Sequence record: JX128259
DNA: 64,000 nt
From: Escherichia phage ECML-134
Strand: one strand, 5' to 3'
Shown: piece by piece, positions 11,187-61,528 of the stretch
Numbering within the stretch: the first letter of the stretch is position 1
Layout of the letters: each line of letters starts with the position of its first letter
Translations under genes and position numbers: made by a program
The notes under the pieces: model-generated
What the model saw: the letters and a program-made list of their open reading frames with translations, nothing else
Told to the model about the DNA's origin: nothing
Databases searched by the model: none

Positions 11187-11789
11187 TTATAGATTAAATC
11201 CTTCAAAATCAAGAGTATAGATAGTGTATGTTGAATACTTTTTGTACTCATATCTATCTGCAATTCTAAATACACTTCCAGCTGGTATCATTACTTCTTG
11301 TTCATCTGAAACTAATTCCATATTACGATAACGATGGCTATCCGAAAACTTAAAGTTTGGATTGTATTCTTTACAGCGTAGAGCTTTTATAGCATACTCC
11401 TGGAAATTGAATACCATAGGAGCTTTGAATTCAAAAATAACTTGTGTGTTATACTCTAAACCGGAAGCAAAATGCAGAGCTATATTTTTATCATATGAAG
11501 CTGATACTACTTTATCAAATGTAATAACATCAATTCCTTGATTTAATACTTGCTTAGTCTCAGCTGGAACACCTCTCCAAAGAGGTTTATCGTTTGGAAC
11601 CAAACGAGATTTGATTATTTCATTTAACCAAGTATGGTCATCTGGCTTATTAGTAATACAATGAATTAAAAGTTCAATTTCAGATAAATTAAACCCTTCA
11701 GAAAGTAATTCTTCACGAATAGAAGCACGCACCGATGCATCCATTGATTTTATTTTAAAATCTTTTAGTTGCATTACTGAGTATTTCAT
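11187..11789 (-). CDS. modA: ADP-ribosyltransferase ModA
   Basis: 200-aa ORF, T4 ModA length; R, S-x-S and E elements of an ART fold visible (LWRGV, VVSASY, EQEVMIP). Confidence 0.7.
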   Translation of the reverse strand: MKYSVMQLKDFKIKSMDASVRASIREELLSEGFNLSEIELLIHCITNKPDDHTWLNEIIKSRLVPNDKPLWRGVPAETKQVLNQGIDVITFDKVVSASYDKNIALHFASGLEYNTQVIFEFKAPMVFNFQEYAIKALRCKEYNPNFKFSDSHRYRNMELVSDEQEVMIPAGSVFRIADRYEYKKYSTYTIYTLDFEGFNL

Positions 11790-12364
11790 TCAACTACCTC
11801 AATATCATAAACTTTAAATGTTCCAAATGAATCGTGTAATTTTTCTTTTGAAATAGAAGTTATTCTATACTTTCCAATTGGAATCATCCATTCTTGTTCA
11901 CGCACGATCATCATTAAGTTATCAGTACGCTCTGAATCTAGCCCATCAGTATCTTCATACGTGTACTTAAACTCAGTATTAGGAGAAGAAAGTATAATAT
12001 CGCTGATATGGTCAGAATAATTAAAAGCTTTATCAGTTTTTAAGCGAAATATTATTTCAGTGAAATACTCAACATAAGAAAAACCACATGCTGTGTGCAA
12101 ACTAGTAGTAAATGAATCTACTCTGTTCGTTGAAAACACTTCTCCAACTTGTAAATCTTTAATAAGTTCTTTTGTCGATTTTGATATACCACGATATAAC
12201 TGATATGGTGATTTAGTTAAATGCTTTTTAACGATTTTATTCAACTGCCGACTGCCGATGAAGAGCTTCATTCTTTTTGGCTTCCATACATTGCCAAAGA
12301 ATTGACTGCTCAAAGTCAGTAAATTTTTCACAGACCTTTTTATACATATCATATTGAAAATCAA
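11786..12364 (-). CDS. modB: ADP-ribosyltransferase ModB
   Basis: 192-aa ORF adjacent to modA; LYRGIS and STT motifs; 4 nt overlap with modA start. Confidence 0.65.
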   Translation of the reverse strand: MIFNMICIKRSVKNLLTLSSQFFGNVWKPKRMKLFIGSRQLNKIVKKHLTKSPYQLYRGISKSTKELIKDLQVGEVFSTNRVDSFTTSLHTACGFSYVEYFTEIIFRLKTDKAFNYSDHISDIILSSPNTEFKYTYEDTDGLDSERTDNLMMIVREQEWMIPIGKYRITSISKEKLHDSFGTFKVYDIEVVE

Positions 12365-17275: not shown

Positions 17276-17902
17276 TTAACCTCTATTCATAAAAGCATTA
17301 AAAATTTGGTCATCAATAGAAACATTTACTTTAGACTGTTTTTCAGATGGCAATTCATATCCACATATTACAATTTTATGATCAATATCAAAATACACAG
17401 AAGCAATATGATTAATGATATTTTCAGTGAAGTCTAAATCAACATCAATATCTTTTTGACCAAAGCCCAAAGGATAAATAATGCGAGTAATTCGATTATC
17501 TTTAACAAAGATTCCACCGACATACTCTGTGCTGCGTTTAAAGTCTACACGCCGATGAAATGAAAAATATTCAGGCTCTTTATGAGCTCGGCTCATAGGG
17601 CACAACGAATAACTAGAATAAGAGATGTCAAATCCTACACCTTCAATATGAACTAAATTGTCATGATTAAACCAATTATAATCATATGCCAAGTCCATTA
17701 GATTGTCATATGTGAAAGGCACCGGATTAACATCATTGGTCACAAGCATATAATTAGCAACTGCTATAATTTCATTATTTTTAACGAATACAAACCGTGA
17801 TTGATGCGAATGACCTGGACCTGCGTTTTCACGATTAATGATATAACACTGGGCACCTTTATATTTGTACGTGTCTTTACACTTGTGCATTTGATAAAGC
17901 AT
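17276..17902 (-). CDS. hypothetical protein
   Basis: 208-aa ORF between primase and sp. Confidence 0.65.
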   Translation of the reverse strand: MLYQMHKCKDTYKYKGAQCYIINRENAGPGHSHQSRFVFVKNNEIIAVANYMLVTNDVNPVPFTYDNLMDLAYDYNWFNHDNLVHIEGVGFDISYSSYSLCPMSRAHKEPEYFSFHRRVDFKRSTEYVGGIFVKDNRITRIIYPLGFGQKDIDVDLDFTENIINHIASVYFDIDHKIVICGYELPSEKQSKVNVSIDDQIFNAFMNRG

Positions 17903-55978: not shown

Positions 55979-56191
55979 TCATTTTTGTCCTGTATTTACT
56001 TTATGCCGATGCACGGCCTTAACTTTATCAAGGTATTTTTCAAAATTTCGCAATCTAGTATAGTCTGCCGGAGATTGGTTGAGTGATACTTCTCGACGCA
56101 AAGCTGAAATGATATTTCCAACTTCCCTACGAATTTCATCTAATTGAAGAACAGTAAGATTGCGAAGTTGCTTTTCAGTTAATTGTAGCAT
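55979..56191 (-). CDS. small hypothetical protein
   Basis: 70-aa basic ORF. Confidence 0.5.
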
Positions 56192-56233
56192 ATATACCCC
56201 TTTAGTTAGATAAACCTATTTATAACTTTTGCA

Positions 56234-56815
56234 CTAACCGAGCTTTTTAGTTAATTCATTCCAATGTTTTCTACACAAAGAAACATAAATTTCATCACCA
56301 ATACAGATTTGATTACCTTCTTTAACTGGTGTTCCATCTTCCATTAATCGAGCTGTCATAATCGCTTTTTTGCCACAATGACAAACTGCTTTTAGTTCAA
56401 TAAGTTTATCTGCAATCGCCAAAAGTTCTTTAGAACCTTCAAATAATTTTCCAGCGAAATCAGTCCTTAGTCCATAAGCCATAACAGGAACATTATATGT
56501 ATCAACAATTCGGCTTAATTGATGCACCTGTTTAGTTTTTAAAAACTGGGCTTCATCTACAAATACACAATGAATATCTTTTTGTGCTTCAGCCCATTTA
56601 TAGAACTCAAAAATATCCATATCATCCGTAATAATATTCGCTTCCTGCTTAATTCCAATGCGAGAAACGACTTCACAGACAGAATCACGAGTATCAATAG
56701 CAGGCTTAAGAACTAATACACCCATTCCGCGTTCTTTATAATTATGTGCAGCAGTCAAAAGAGAAGCAGATTTTCCAGCATTCATTGCTGCGTAAGTAAA
56801 AATTAAACTCGCCAT
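56234..56815 (-). CDS. tk: thymidine kinase
   Basis: 193-aa ORF; P-loop AAMNAGKS; C-terminal zinc cysteines. Confidence 0.85.
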   Translation of the reverse strand: MASLIFTYAAMNAGKSASLLTAAHNYKERGMGVLVLKPAIDTRDSVCEVVSRIGIKQEANIITDDMDIFEFYKWAEAQKDIHCVFVDEAQFLKTKQVHQLSRIVDTYNVPVMAYGLRTDFAGKLFEGSKELLAIADKLIELKAVCHCGKKAIMTARLMEDGTPVKEGNQICIGDEIYVSLCRKHWNELTKKLG

Positions 56816-56824
56816 ATCACCTTC

Positions 56825-57010
56825 TTAAAGCGTATTCACATAAGCTATTAATTCGTTTTCTTTCTTATCAAACCGATCAGCAAATTCTTCTTGCTGATCG
56901 GGAGATAGCGGGCCATATTCATCATAAAAGGTGTTTGCTTCTGTATGCTCATCTAGAAGTTCATGGATAAGCTCAAACAATTTATCTTTTTGTTCTTTAC
57001 TCAGACTCAT
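56825..57010 (-). CDS. small acidic protein
   Basis: 61-aa ORF; start overlaps upstream stop. Confidence 0.5.
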   Translation of the reverse strand: MSLSKEQKDKLFELIHELLDEHTEANTFYDEYGPLSPDQQEEFADRFDKKENELIAYVNTL

Positions 57011-57180
57011 ATATTAATTTCCAGGAGTTTTAAAATAATTCTCTTTTGCTTAAATATTTCCATAGTTAAATGATCAGTATCTTTTTGACCAATTCCAATA
57101 GCAAAACCTTTATTAGCAGCGAGTTCAATTAAATTATCAAGTTCACGTGACACTTCATATTGTAACTCAGAACTATTCAT
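57010..57180 (-). CDS. small hypothetical protein
   Basis: 57-aa ORF translated by hand (MNSSELQYEVSRELDNLIELAANKGF...); ATGA overlap at both ends. Confidence 0.4.
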
Positions 57181-57404
57181 TTCGGTTTACCTTCTTTAAC
57201 GAAATCTGGATAAGGATAAAATCCCGAATAAAATCCTTCACCTTTATGATTGATGCATCCTTTATTAGAACAATAGCACCAATAATCGAAATCACAAGCC
57301 ATTTCATCATTACATAAAGCAAAAACAACCGGCCATTTACACTTTTCACAATGGGCATTTTTAAGAATACTAGTTTGGCTCATAACCATGTAACCTTTAA
57401 ACAA
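57177..57404 (-). CDS. small Cys-rich protein
   Basis: 75-aa ORF with 9 cysteines. Confidence 0.5.
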   Translation of the reverse strand: MFKGYMVMSQTSILKNAHCEKCKWPVVFALCNDEMACDFDYWCYCSNKGCINHKGEGFYSGFYPYPDFVKEGKPK

Positions 57405-57607
57405 TATTCTTCTACATGTTGTTTACGACCTTTCTTATCAATAAAGGTATATTCAACGAATGTTCCAATATAGTCTTTATCTACATCATGTGGACTATTA
57501 ATTGGACATTTAGTACGGCAAATGCGTTCCCATTGACGAATAATTTCCACTTTGTTTTTAGGATCAAACGGATGCGGGTAATGTATATTCATAATAACGG
57601 TTCCCAA
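57380..57607 (-). CDS. small hypothetical protein
   Basis: 75-aa ORF. Confidence 0.5.
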   Translation of the reverse strand: MGTVIMNIHYPHPFDPKNKVEIIRQWERICRTKCPINSPHDVDKDYIGTFVEYTFIDKKGRKQHVEEYCLKVTWL

Positions 57608-58056
57608 TCAACAATCACAATTTCTAATTTAGAGGAATATGTATCTAAAATATCTTTAATAATATCCCAGTTCCCTTTACCTATGCCTGCACCAATCCTA
57701 GGCATATAGATTGTAGGTTTAATCAGTTTATTTTCGCCAAACTCATTTAATTCTAACATACAATTCATTAAAGCGGAATACTCAAAATTTGGCCCTGGTT
57801 GAAATTGAGTATAAAGATTAAAGCAGTAAGCTTTATGAGTCCTAAAGTACTTTTCATAGACTGAGTAAGAACCGAGTTTAGTTACATCACCCCATTCAGT
57901 CTGTAATTTATCAACTTCTAGAATTTTAGGGAAAGCTTTAGTTAATTGACCTGCGACTCCAGCTTTCATCGCGTGAAAACAATTGCATCCATGCGCAATA
58001 TTTTTACCTTCAGCGAAAAGGGCGACAATATCGCCCTTGATATATTTTACAATCAT
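57589..58056 (-). CDS. macro-like domain protein (putative ADP-ribose binding/processing)
   Basis: 155-aa ORF; IAHGCNCFHAMKAGVAGQL and PRIGAGIGKG resemble macro-domain nucleotide and phosphate loops; by eye only. Confidence 0.5.
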   Translation of the reverse strand: MIVKYIKGDIVALFAEGKNIAHGCNCFHAMKAGVAGQLTKAFPKILEVDKLQTEWGDVTKLGSYSVYEKYFRTHKAYCFNLYTQFQPGPNFEYSALMNCMLELNEFGENKLIKPTIYMPRIGAGIGKGNWDIIKDILDTYSSKLEIVIVDWEPLL

Positions 58057-58400
58057 CTAGTACTCAATCCTCGATTATAAGAATCTACCAAACGGTCAAC
58101 CATTGAATGACAAGCGGCTTTATCTTTCTCCTCCGCAACTGAACATTCTAAGGTATTCCACTTTTTAGCATATCGTTTTAATAATGTATCGTTTTTGTAT
58201 CTGCTTGATTTATCTCTTTCTCCGTCTTTATATGCATATATTAATTTCTGTGCAAATTCAGCTTGGCATGCTTTATTTTTCCCACAATAATCTGCCGCAG
58301 TGCGGTTTACATATTCTCTAATTTCAGTATATGATGTATCTGCTGACGCAGAAGCAGAAAATGAAATTAATCCTATACATAAAACCAAAATTTTAGTCAT
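58053..58400 (-). CDS. vs: Vs-like periplasmic protein
   Basis: 115-aa ORF with signal peptide; T4 vs length; position after tk. Confidence 0.55.
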   Translation of the reverse strand: MTKILVLCIGLISFSASASADTSYTEIREYVNRTAADYCGKNKACQAEFAQKLIYAYKDGERDKSSRYKNDTLLKRYAKKWNTLECSVAEEKDKAACHSMVDRLVDSYNRGLSTR

Positions 58401-58938
58401 TTACTATTTCCAAAAGTTTATTATTTTTAAGGTAATTAGCCTTTTCTAGGACTTCAGAAGCATATTTAGAACCAGCTTTAACATTCCATCCCGAATTATA
58501 AGAGGATATTGCTTTTCTTATATCGCCCTTATGTATATTTAACCAATAAGAAAGTTCAATGTACGCCCAGGAAGCTGAATTGGATCGTTTATTCAACATT
58601 CTTTTTATTTCAGCATCGGTCATATTATAACCAAGTTCCTTAACTCTTGCTCGCATAGTAGGCAAATAATTTTGGAACATTCCGTAGGCGTGATGCTTTG
58701 GTTTAGATTTTAAATTAACTCCGCCAGAGCTTTCTTGCCATAAAATAGCAGCCATTATATGACCTAATCCGCTCTTGTGGATATTTTTGTGTGTTTTATA
58801 TTTTCCATCCTTAGAAAATTGTTCCCCGAATTGATACGCGTAACGCATGTTATCGAGTTGGACATTACTGAAAGTATGCTCGGAGCTATGTGCCATCATT
58901 GAAATGGCCAATAGACCAGCGAGTAGTGCTTTTCTCAT
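58393..58938 (-). CDS. periplasmic lytic transglycosylase-like protein
   Basis: 181-aa ORF; signal peptide; AILWQESSGGVN resembles the catalytic ES motif of lytic transglycosylases. Confidence 0.55.
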   Translation of the reverse strand: MRKALLAGLLAISMMAHSSEHTFSNVQLDNMRYAYQFGEQFSKDGKYKTHKNIHKSGLGHIMAAILWQESSGGVNLKSKPKHHAYGMFQNYLPTMRARVKELGYNMTDAEIKRMLNKRSNSASWAYIELSYWLNIHKGDIRKAISSYNSGWNVKAGSKYASEVLEKANYLKNNKLLEIVND

Positions 58939-58945
58939 GCTTACC

Positions 58946-59407
58946 TCATTGAGTTTTAATTACTGCTTTAGAAGCCTTTCCTGGTAAACGACGACTGTTA
59001 ATAATTGCCATCCTACATTGGAGTGACGGGTCTTTGAACTTCTCATTAGGTTTACAAACTGTAAATCCAAGCCAAAGATTTCCATCTGTGATTTCTAAAC
59101 GTCCAGGACGATATTCAATCCCATCAATAAAATCCTCATCGATATCAGGACGCGGAGGCATACTCAGGAATTCATTAACTTCTAAAACATGGTCTTTTAT
59201 TTTATGGAATAATTCAAAAACATATGTCTCATCAATCTCCCGTTGAATTGCGCGATCAAGAAGATGCTGAGAATATTTTAGATGAAACGATGAGACTCCT
59301 GCTGCTTTTGATGCCTCACGAATCTCATTGTTAATTTGACGAAACTCCGACTCAAAGTGACGACGAAGCTTATTTCGACGGATAAAAACTTCTGTATTGA
59401 TAGTCAT
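58946..59407 (-). CDS. regB: RegB site-specific RNA endonuclease
   Basis: 153-aa ORF, T4 RegB length; sequence recalled as similar. Confidence 0.75.
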   Translation of the reverse strand: MTINTEVFIRRNKLRRHFESEFRQINNEIREASKAAGVSSFHLKYSQHLLDRAIQREIDETYVFELFHKIKDHVLEVNEFLSMPPRPDIDEDFIDGIEYRPGRLEITDGNLWLGFTVCKPNEKFKDPSLQCRMAIINSRRLPGKASKAVIKTQ

Positions 59408-59434
59408 GTTATTCTCCTCTTAACTGATAGAAAA

Positions 59435-59464
59435 ATTATACCACAGTTAAGAGGAAAAGTAAAC
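59435..59464 (-). promoter_or_regulatory. early sigma70-type promoter
   Basis: gtaaac at 59459-59464; -10 TATAAT; 18 bp spacer. Confidence 0.55.
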
Positions 59465-59466
59465 AG

Positions 59467-59787
59467 TTATTCTTTAAATCTAATCAATTTATTCATAGAC
59501 TTTGAAACTTCTGCACGAACCTCATGTAGATTTTTGAGCTGTTCAAGACGCTGCGTATAGTAAGCAATTTCATCTTCTTCGAGACAGTCCTGTGAATCTT
59601 CTTTAAGATAACGTGCATAGTCCTGGAAAGCGTTACGGACTACTTCCTGGAAGTCATCAAGACTTTGAATTTTCTTAGGAGCAACAGATACACGACGAGG
59701 GGCAGTATAATACTCATAACCAAACCCTGCGCTTAATTGAGCCATTAGTATTTTTCCTCTGGTTGGAACACTGCACGACAAGCCCAC
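59467..59787 (-). CDS. hypothetical protein
   Basis: 106-aa ORF. Confidence 0.55.
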
Positions 59788-60047
59788 ATACTGGCTTCTT
59801 TGAGTTTCGTTTTAGCAATAGTTAACTGATCGAGGCTTTCAGCATAATTCTTCGCGAATTCACAGTCTTCACAATTATCTAGTGCTTCCCAGAATTCATC
59901 GTATAAAGCGTCAAAGATAAGTCCTAAACGAATTTCAGCGTCTTTGATAGCATTCACTTTACCGATTTTCTCTTCAGTATGCGGCTTATAACCTTTAATG
60001 TCTTCAATCATATTTGACTTCCTCACCAGTACATAAATCATATTCAA
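59745..60047 (-). CDS. hypothetical protein
   Basis: 100-aa ORF. Confidence 0.55.
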
Positions 60048-60225
60048 CTAAACGAATAGGTTCATGAATGCCATATCCCTGAACAGAAATTTCTGTCGTA
60101 GGATAAATTCCATCAATATCGCCCATATTCCACGCTTCATTAAATTGCTGTTCGCCTGAATTACTAAACCACTCGGCGAAAGCATTTAGCACATCTTCAG
60201 AACCTTCAATAATTATCTTTGCCAT
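60004..60225 (-). CDS. small acidic protein
   Basis: 73-aa ORF. Confidence 0.5.
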   Translation of the reverse strand: MAKIIIEGSEDVLNAFAEWFSNSGEQQFNEAWNMGDIDGIYPTTEISVQGYGIHEPIRLVEYDLCTGEEVKYD

Positions 60226-60587
60226 TACAAACTCTCGGTAAAGGTACGAGCGATAACGTCGCGCTGCTGTTCCGGAGTCAGAGAGTTAAAGCGAACTGCA
60301 TAACCGGATACACGGATGGTCAGCTGCGGATATTTTTCCGGATGCTTAACTGCATCTTCCAGAGTTTCACGACGCAGAACGTTAACGTTCAGGTGTTGAC
60401 CACCTTCAATTTTAACTGTAGGCTGTGGCTCAATTTCAATTTCACGGGCATGCAAACCATAGAAAATTTCTGGGTCTACAAAAGAGTCCTCTTTAAAGGT
60501 TTTAGAGACAATAATTCGTGCTTGAATACCATCTTCAAAATAAATAGTACCTTTATGTGTGCCTTCAAGAATTTGATATGCTTTCAT
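60225..60587 (-). CDS. autonomous glycyl radical cofactor, GrcA/YfiD-like
   Basis: 120-aa ORF ending [32 protein letters not shown]; glycyl radical motif RVSGY; 3' half visibly more GC-rich than surroundings. Confidence 0.8.
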
Positions 60588-60594
60588 ATAAACC

Positions 60595-60921
60595 TCAATT
60601 AGAAAATAAATTTATCCAAGATTGTTCTTTAATTAAAAACGGCTCAGAATCATATGCCATTAAACTTTGCGTAATTAATCCTTTAAAAGGTCCATCAATA
60701 AATTCCATGGTAAAATATGGAATTTTATTCATTAGCCGTGCATTAGGAGCAGTGCACAAAACTCTGCATCCTTTGAATACGCCTTTTTGTAATTTGTATT
60801 GCTTAGGATAAAATTCGCTCAAAATGTTATTGTTTGCTAAAATTTCAAAATGATTCACCAATTTATTTTTAATAGTTTTTGGCGAAAAATAAAGATATTC
60901 GAAAAGCTGAGTGTCTGTCAT
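60595..60921 (-). CDS. hypothetical protein
   Basis: ORF track gives 60595-60972; start set to Met-Met pair overlapping the upstream stop (TGATG). Confidence 0.5.
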
Positions 60922-61460
60922 CATTGCATTCCGATTACGAAAAACTGCGGACGAGTAATACCACCAATGCAACAGTTAATATTACAGCAGTGGTGTACAG
61001 TGTCAATATGGACACTATAAATCTTATCCATATCAGGAGATTTGACAGGCTCATCAATTATATACAAAATTCGCGAAAGCGATAAACCTCTGAACTTGCT
61101 TCCTTTATTACCAATAAAACTGCGTACAGAATCAGTAAATAAACGAAAACGTATATCATCATTAGAATAACGCGAAAATTCCTTTTTAATGTTATTTGCA
61201 GAAATTTTAGCGTAAGCTGAAGTATTAGAAAGAACAATAACTGTTCCACCGTCATACAACCAATTAGCGGCAAAATTAGTTACTGCAGTTGATTTACCGG
61301 ATTGACGTCCACCATCTAGTCGAAGTGTGCAATACTGCTTAAGTAAGTCTTCAAATGGCGGGATATATTCGTTTTTACAAATTTCTTCTACTCTAGCGTC
61401 AGAATGGTGTGTAAAAGCATTCATCAGGGATAGATAAGGACCAGTTAAAAATGTTCTCAT
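60921..61460 (-). CDS. P-loop ATPase at the position where T4 carries denV
   Basis: ORF track gives 60921-61508; start moved to Met 17 because the first 16 codons overlap the 34 nt intergenic repeat; Walker A GGRQSGKST, Walker B ILYIIDEP. Confidence 0.55.
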   Translation of the reverse strand: MRTFLTGPYLSLMNAFTHHSDARVEEICKNEYIPPFEDLLKQYCTLRLDGGRQSGKSTAVTNFAANWLYDGGTVIVLSNTSAYAKISANNIKKEFSRYSNDDIRFRLFTDSVRSFIGNKGSKFRGLSLSRILYIIDEPVKSPDMDKIYSVHIDTVHHCCNINCCIGGITRPQFFVIGMQ

Positions 61461-61494
61461 TTTATTCTCTCTAAATTTGGGCCATTCCATGGCG

Positions 61495-61528
61495 CATGAA
61501 TTGTCCATTTCTGTATTTACCCATTACC
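61495..61528. repeat. 34 nt intergenic repeat, copy A
   Basis: catgaattgtccatttctgtatttacccattacc; one mismatch to copy at 62143-62176. Confidence 0.7.

Follow-up and report, generated by a model that had tools for sequence, protein, structure and literature searches.

The phage macro domain protein Tk.4 (AdfM) in Escherichia phage ECML-134 and the glutamine-type active site of its family

The closest described counterpart of the locus considered here is the tk.4 gene of phage T4. In the HIDEN-SEQ preprint (November 2025), a T4 transposon library was screened on E. coli expressing DarTG2 (M9-glucose, 30 °C); tk.4 was the sole significant T4 gene in the DarTG2-host screen, and a clean T4 knockout of tk.4 was DarTG2-sensitive (10.1101/2025.11.20.689424). 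Since T4 needs tk.4 to survive DarTG2, which ADP-ribosylates DNA, the authors gave the gene the new name adfM (anti-DarT factor Macrodomain); they pointed to the similarity of Tk.4 to M. tuberculosis DarG and wrote of an enzymatic removal of ADP-ribose that it "seems likely," without reporting enzymology (10.1101/2025.11.20.689424). T4 devoid of both adfA (61.2) and adfN (30.3, a NADAR) is still resistant to DarTG2, and a further factor was therefore expected (PMC11825919). We found no report in the literature in which a Tk.4-type protein had been assayed enzymatically.

Three related proteins provide the biochemical background. SCO6735 cleaves thymidine-linked ADP-ribose on single-stranded DNA and rescues E. 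coli from DarT; its Q85A variant is inactive and the N27S variant is nearly dead, and in the proposed mechanism a water molecule is held by the backbone of Val25 (PMC9411070; PMC12879935). Human TARG1 (OARD1; PDB 4J5R/4J5S) hydrolyzes thymidine-ADP-ribose (T-ADPr) DNA (PMC12879935). The macrodomain protein gp104 of phage PhiKZ, named AdfM, removes DarT2-placed ADP-ribose from a TNTC oligonucleotide in vitro (Cell Rep 2026, PMC13309987). The name AdfM was thus assigned independently to T4 Tk.4 (Gln-type, November 2025 preprint) and to PhiKZ gp104 (Lys-type, Cell Rep 2026); in the passages searched, the T4 preprint mentions neither SCO6735 nor TARG1, and the PhiKZ paper does not mention Tk.4.

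The window, i.e., the whole 64,000-nt stretch of Escherichia phage ECML-134 DNA analyzed here (JX128259), is a Tequatrovirus (T4-like) genome. The 1.5 kb around the gene of interest shares 97% identity with T6, RB32, and many phages of E. coli, Shigella, and Salmonella. The ORF listing contains a single ATG-started minus-strand ORF of 155 aa at positions 57589–58056, exactly where the original prediction had located a macro-like ORF with two characteristic segments, and both segments, IAHGCNCFHAMKAGVAGQL (residues 20–38) and PRIGAGIGKG (residues 119–128), are present in its translation. This ORF is tk.4, the ortholog of T4 tk.4. The two proteins have the same length and share 149 of 155 residues (96%), and the gene occupies the same position between vs and tk.3, in the gene order of both RB32 and T4, its start and stop codons overlapping the neighboring genes as they do in T4:

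57589–58056, minus strand: tk.4 (adfM), encoding a 155-aa stand-alone macro domain protein; the 57589 end includes the stop codon.
58053–58400, minus strand: upstream gene vs, which codes for the valyl-tRNA synthetase modifier; its product shows 100% identity to T4 Vs.
57380–57592, minus strand: tk.3, the downstream gene, 95.7% identical to T4 Tk.3, with a Pfam DUF7202 match (E = 1.5e-37).

As read from the sequence, the TGA stop codon of vs and the ATG of tk.4 overlap within ATGA, and the same arrangement joins the TGA of tk.4 to the ATG of tk.3; these overlaps suggest that the three genes are co-transcribed and translationally coupled. The neighbors of tk.4 (vs, vs.1, regB, tk.3, and tk) are the same in T4 and RB32, and vs and regB, which belong to the same minus-strand run, are treated as early genes of T4. 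A scan of positions 56000–61500 gave 20 promoter candidates against 22.2 in shuffled sequences and 4 terminator candidates against 3.1, i.e., no excess, and is therefore uninformative on tk.4 expression. The RefSeq label of T4 Tk.4 is "phosphatase; contains A1pp phosphatase motif," and other GenBank labels are "macro domain protein" and "high-affinity ADP-ribose binding module protein."

A homolog of AdfA (T4 gp61.2) is encoded at 17279–17902 on the minus strand (98.6% identity over 208 aa). The window therefore contains two of the three described anti-DarT genes of T4, with adfN (30.3) lying outside, and the layered countermeasures of T-even phages against DNA ADP-ribosylation are confirmed by the presence of AdfA (61.2) and AdfM (tk.4). 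The original observation is confirmed and its reading in terms of host defense supported, but both the gene and its role have been described before for T4 (tk.4/adfM), and the finding therefore adds little in itself. Its suggestion that the protein reverses ADP-ribosylation by a host defense toxin is supported by the T4 ortholog, which is the only T4 gene to become essential on a DarTG2 host and whose knockout is sensitive. The remaining value is mechanistic, as one name, AdfM, covers two unrelated-looking proteins, the Lys-type PhiKZ gp104 and the Gln-type T4 Tk.4, and the Gln-type active site of the Tk.4 family is what the present analysis adds.

Tk.4 consists of a single macro domain and belongs to the ALC1-like class, which includes TARG1, DarG, SCO6735, and Poa1p. 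The protein matches the Pfam Macro family PF01661 with E = 5.6e-5 and 23.5 bits, above the curated gathering cutoff of 22 bits, along profile positions 2–115 (114 of 118). A phmmer search against PDB sequences retrieved BT1257 (5.7e-8), Poa1p, TARG1/OARD1, and DarG, and a profile of the Tk.4 family built from 76 sequences detected solved macro domains with E-values from 1e-22 to 4e-14 (BT1257, 1e-22; SCO6735, 2e-19; TARG1, 2e-17; Poa1p, 6e-16; DarG, about 6e-15). The AlphaFold2 model of Tk.4 based on the 76-homolog alignment (mean pLDDT 95.3, pTM 0.90) has the three-layer alpha/beta macro fold in the predicted structure. The Foldseek matches of this model are TARG1, BT1257, Poa1p, DarG, and SCO6735, the best being human TARG1 (E = 3.5e-10). 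The nearest neighbors by both structure and sequence thus belong to the ALC1-like class rather than to the MacroD, PARG, or viral macro domains. The only NCBIfam and PADLOC matches of Tk.4 are to DarG, in its macro part only, and no second macro domain was found when the family profile was compared with all six-frame ORFs of at least 50 aa in the window, tk.4 being the only hit. The macro domain assignment, originally made by eye, is upheld by the profile match, the predicted fold, and the loop alignment; neither the lack of a macro fold nor a best profile match to an unrelated family, the outcomes named in advance as refuting it, was seen.

Active-site residues were mapped by a sequence/profile alignment, in which PDB and published sequences (DarG of M. 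tuberculosis, Taq, and Thermosipho, TARG1, BT1257, SCO6735, Poa1p, and PhiKZ gp104) were added with hmmalign to the Tk.4 family profile, the DarG sequences being confirmed by a 100% match to 5M3I. Conservation was assessed in the 76 aligned homologs and in 139 additional sequences representing as many different 50%-identity clusters (215 in total). The following elements were located in the gene:

57943–57999, minus strand: loop 1, residues 20–38 (IAHGCNCFHAMKAGVAGQL), aligned with the N-x6-G-x-G loop of DarG, TARG1, and SCO6735.
57805–57807, minus strand: CAA codon of Gln84, in the hmmalign column of the catalytic Lys.
57673–57702, minus strand: loop 2 (phosphate-binding), residues 119–128 (PRIGAGIGKG), aligned with known macro loops.

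Both segments originally singled out as macro-like thus align with the N-x6-G-x-G and P-x-I-G-x-G loops of DarG, TARG1, BT1257, and SCO6735. In loop 1, the conserved residues are Gly23, Asn25, Gly33, and Ala35, with Asn25 present in 76/76 and 139/139 sequences. Loop 2 corresponds to PRIGCGLAGG in BT1257/SCO6735 and PPLGxGNGGL in DarG; its P119 and G122 are invariant, and G124 is shared by all of the 139 representatives and nearly all of the 76 homologs. Gln84, which belongs to the motif NLYTQ and is likewise conserved in 76/76 and 139/139 sequences, occupies the column that holds the catalytic Lys in TARG1 (K84), DarG (K80), and PhiKZ AdfM (K78). BT1257 and SCO6735 also have Gln in this column (NMIGQH), and Gln84 and Asn25 of Tk.4 align with the essential Gln85 and with Asn27 of SCO6735, respectively. 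Not a single Lys-type variant was found among the 76 and 139 family members. Since an invariant Gln84 stands in place of the Lys used by DarG and TARG1, the T4-type protein represents a lysine-free lineage and not a plain copy of DarG, and judging by these residues its catalysis is probably not DarG-like.

The Gln-type ALC1-like proteins SCO6735 (PDB 5E3B) and BT1257 (PDB 2FG1/2AFC) share the Gln and loop-1 Asn columns with Tk.4, whereas their identity to this phage-encoded protein is about 25–27%. The Val/Ile25 residue, described as specific to SCO6735 homologues, corresponds to Gly23 in Tk.4, conserved in 76/76 and 138/139 family members; the role proposed for this position belongs to the backbone carbonyl, so the function may survive. 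The mobile loop of SCO6735 is approximately five residues longer than those of DarG and TARG1 and carries the DNA-binding Lys89 and Lys94, whereas Tk.4, unlike SCO6735 and BT1257, has no insertion after Gln84, its loop being as long as in DarG and TARG1. Val/Ile25 and the extended lysine loop were tied by the SCO6735 authors to the mechanism and to DNA handling (PMC9411070). Membership of Tk.4 in the SCO6735 subclass was considered and rejected, as both of these features are missing.

DarG (PDB 5M3I, 5M31, 7OMU) has the catalytic Lys80 within FPTK, a numbering that applies to both the T. aquaticus and the M. tuberculosis protein, as opposed to Gln84 within NLYTQ, and its full length of about 330–350 aa includes a C-terminal DarT-binding domain that the 155-aa Tk.4 does not have. 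Correspondingly, Tk.4 matches positions 2–147 of the 338 positions of the DarG NCBIfam model NF048014, with 25.6 bits against a cutoff of 250, and only the N-terminal half of the PADLOC DarG model. DarG genes adjoin darT (DUF4433), whereas the neighbors of tk.4 include no darT. TARG1 belongs to the same ALC1-like class, but its catalytic dyad Lys84/Asp125 is replaced by Gln84/Gly126 in Tk.4, Gly126 occupying the Asp125 column. PhiKZ gp104 is, like Tk.4, a phage-encoded stand-alone macrodomain countering DarTG2; it is Lys-type and DarG-like (VNVVGVMG...FPTK78) and is imported into the phage nucleus. The two proteins are only 20% identical (pairwise E = 0.015), and the Tk.4 profile scores gp104 at 43 bits, the lowest value among the full-length comparators, compared with 82 for BT1257. 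Therefore, the two proteins called AdfM represent different branches of the ALC1-like class.

The most likely function of Tk.4, which we regard as probable, is to strip thymidine in single-stranded phage DNA of the ADP-ribose placed there by DarT2. In the proposed sequence of events, host DarT2 would modify thymidine within the TNTC motifs of this DNA with ADP-ribose, and Tk.4 would bind the ADP-ribose and hydrolyze the N-glycosidic bond between ribose and thymine. The hydrolysis would restore a replicable template and cancel the abortive defense by DarTG2, so that Tk.4 would in effect be an orphan antitoxin carried by the phage. At the active site, the lysine is replaced by Gln84, which would be held by Asn25; as proposed for SCO6735, the Gln would position the distal ribose, and a backbone-bound water would act on the substrate. 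The activity of SCO6735 demonstrates that a lysine-free macro domain can perform T-ADPr chemistry and thereby lends plausibility to the AdfM function proposed for Tk.4. The hydrolase reading has to accommodate the absence of both the Lys of DarG/TARG1 and the Asp of TARG1 (Gln84 and Gly126 in Tk.4), and a mechanism of exactly the SCO6735 type is disfavored by Gly23, the short loop, and the Ala/Ser residue in the Lys34 column.

It is quite unlikely that Tk.4 protects without catalysis, by binding and inhibiting DarT2 or by reading ADP-ribosylated DNA. In favor of such a role, Tk.4 does not have the catalytic Lys that DarG and TARG1 use, and Gln in this column is common to non-hydrolytic ALC1 homologues, which bind (PMC9411070). 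Moreover, the dead Q85A variant of SCO6735 still inhibits DarT in vitro by interaction (PMC9411070), and the T4 genetics cannot distinguish hydrolysis from inhibition. Against this, Asn25, kept in nearly all active macro domains, and Gln84 are conserved in 215 of 215 sequences together with the glycine loops, a strict pattern that fits an active site; Tk.4 has no counterpart of the C-terminal DarT-binding domain of DarG, and stoichiometric shielding of many sites by a small early protein would seem inefficient. Slightly less improbable, but still unlikely, is a main role in the metabolism of small ADP-ribose derivatives, to which the DarTG2 phenotype would be secondary; the candidate substrates are ADP-ribose-1''-phosphate (as for Poa1p), O-acetyl-ADP-ribose, and ADPr-derived immune signals. 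The inherited "phosphatase" label, the resemblance to Poa1p, and one phage contig with a macro gene among RNA-repair genes speak for such substrates. However, the "phosphatase" labels are inherited names and not tests, and the repair route of T4 Pnk and Rnl1 yields neither Appr>p nor Appr1p. In addition, the only recorded phenotype is specific to DarTG2, a DNA-modifying system, and is left unexplained by this role.

The original prediction had also noted two ADP-ribosyltransferases, ModA and ModB, in the window and had proposed reversal of the phage's own ADP-ribosylation as a possible role of the macro domain. The two genes are indeed present:

11187–11789: ADP-ribosyltransferase paralog 1, matching PHROG 832 "RNA polymerase ADP-ribosylase" (E = 1e-33).
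11786–12364, minus strand: ADP-ribosyltransferase paralog 2, matching PHROG 832 "RNA polymerase ADP-ribosylase" (E = 3e-31).

Neither ORF has Pfam matches, and PHROGs were used instead. The ORF at 11187–11789 is 96–99% identical to annotated Tequatrovirus ADP-ribosyltransferase genes. The upstream paralog (11786–12364) starts with TTG and is 192 aa long as listed, T4 ModB being presumably slightly longer (about 207 aa); its true start may therefore differ, or it may be slightly truncated.

Reversal or tuning by Tk.4 of the protein ADP-ribosylation made by Alt, ModA, or ModB is very improbable, even though both ADP-ribosyltransferase ORFs are located in the same window. Alt, ModA, and ModB modify arginine, and Arg-ADPr is reversed by enzymes of the ARH/DraG type; no macro domain is known to cleave it. 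The mod genes are situated 45 kb away, well outside the vs–tk.4–tk.3 cluster. The phage distributions do not match either, since Tk.4-type genes were found by tblastn in 2,726 phage records, approximately three times the 928 records with ModA homologs, and span hosts for which no ModA was detected. The capacity of SCO6735 and TARG1 to take ADP-ribose off Glu/Asp on proteins as well lends this role some support (PMC9411070), but in the passages of the preprint examined tk.4 is reported as conditionally required on the DarTG2 host only, with no mention of a fitness cost on the control host (10.1101/2025.11.20.689424). Given the linkage, the distance, and the distribution, the co-occurrence of tk.4 with ModA/ModB therefore looks incidental and is most simply explained as a feature of T-even genomes, and the suggestion that the protein removes the marks set by the phage enzymes ModA and ModB finds no support.

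The DarTG2 genetics were obtained with the T4 allele, from which the window protein differs by six substitutions (T29A, G31K, S32A, A48V, E134K, and G135D, T4 to window), three of them in loop 1. Eleven of 25 nucleotides in this loop-1 patch differ from T4, compared with about 1–2% in the flanks. Residues 29–32 (57961–57972) are AMKA in the window and TMGS in T4, and the alleles TMGS, TMGA, TMKA, and AMKA were observed among close Tequatrovirus relatives. The patch could be the result of recombination or of diversifying selection. The column of the DNA-contacting Lys (Lys34 in SCO6735, Lys29 in DarG) is occupied by Ala32 in the window and by Ser32 in T4. Lys31 of the window protein adjoins this column (K34 of SCO6735, K29 of DarG). 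We infer that Tk.4 would act as a T-ADPr DNA hydrolase with a Gln-type mechanism and that the window allele would behave like that of T4.

The Tk.4-type family is very large and comprises 1,610 representatives of 50%-identity clusters at E ≤ 1e-30 and 11,273 at E ≤ 1e-10; the hosts of the phages include Pseudomonas, Vibrio, Acinetobacter, Aeromonas, Rhodococcus, and Bacillus. A bacterial origin or a toxin–antitoxin context of the family was considered and rejected, as the homologs labeled as bacterial MAG sequences (P0051, from Bacilli, and P0098) are located on T4-like phage contigs, which carry Rnl1, a Dda-like helicase, PNKP, spanin, and rIIB; none of these homologs was seen next to a darT gene. 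The T4-type family, for all its size, does not have the residue defining DarG catalysis, and lysine-independent de-ADP-ribosylation of thymidine may be the common solution of phages. It is possible, although we consider it doubtful, that the T4-type AdfM constitutes a third mechanistic lineage of thymidine-ADP-ribose hydrolases, lysine-free, with Gly23 and a short mobile loop, recruited by phages independently of the Lys-type PhiKZ AdfM, perhaps cleaving other linkages and having loop 1 as an arms-race site. If so, the additional linkages might be those known for SCO6735/TARG1, i.e., Glu/Asp-ADPr on proteins and uracil-ADPr on RNA, and the protection would extend beyond DarT2; tuning in the arms race would take place in the polymorphic loop 1 (residues 29–32).

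An unusual gene context was observed in GCA_051648945.1 (labeled as a Bacilli MAG but carrying T4-like phage genes), where a Tk.4-type gene lies near RNA-repair genes (positions 344–2397). There the macro gene is located one gene downstream of an Rnl1-type RNA ligase gene and a DUF4326 gene, and a PNKP gene follows 2.5 kb further on, an arrangement unlike that of T4. In the window itself, the stretch between tk and tk.3 (56825–57404, minus strand) is mosaic with respect to T4: it does not contain tk.1, and its tk.2 is just 54% identical to the T4 counterpart. Two additional small ORFs in this region, at 57007–57180 and 57177–57389, are 98–100% identical to ORF110c and ORF111c of RB32, and the product of the latter ORF (57177–57389) is Cys-rich (CEKC...CNDEMAC...CYCSNKGC) and resembles a small zinc-binding protein.
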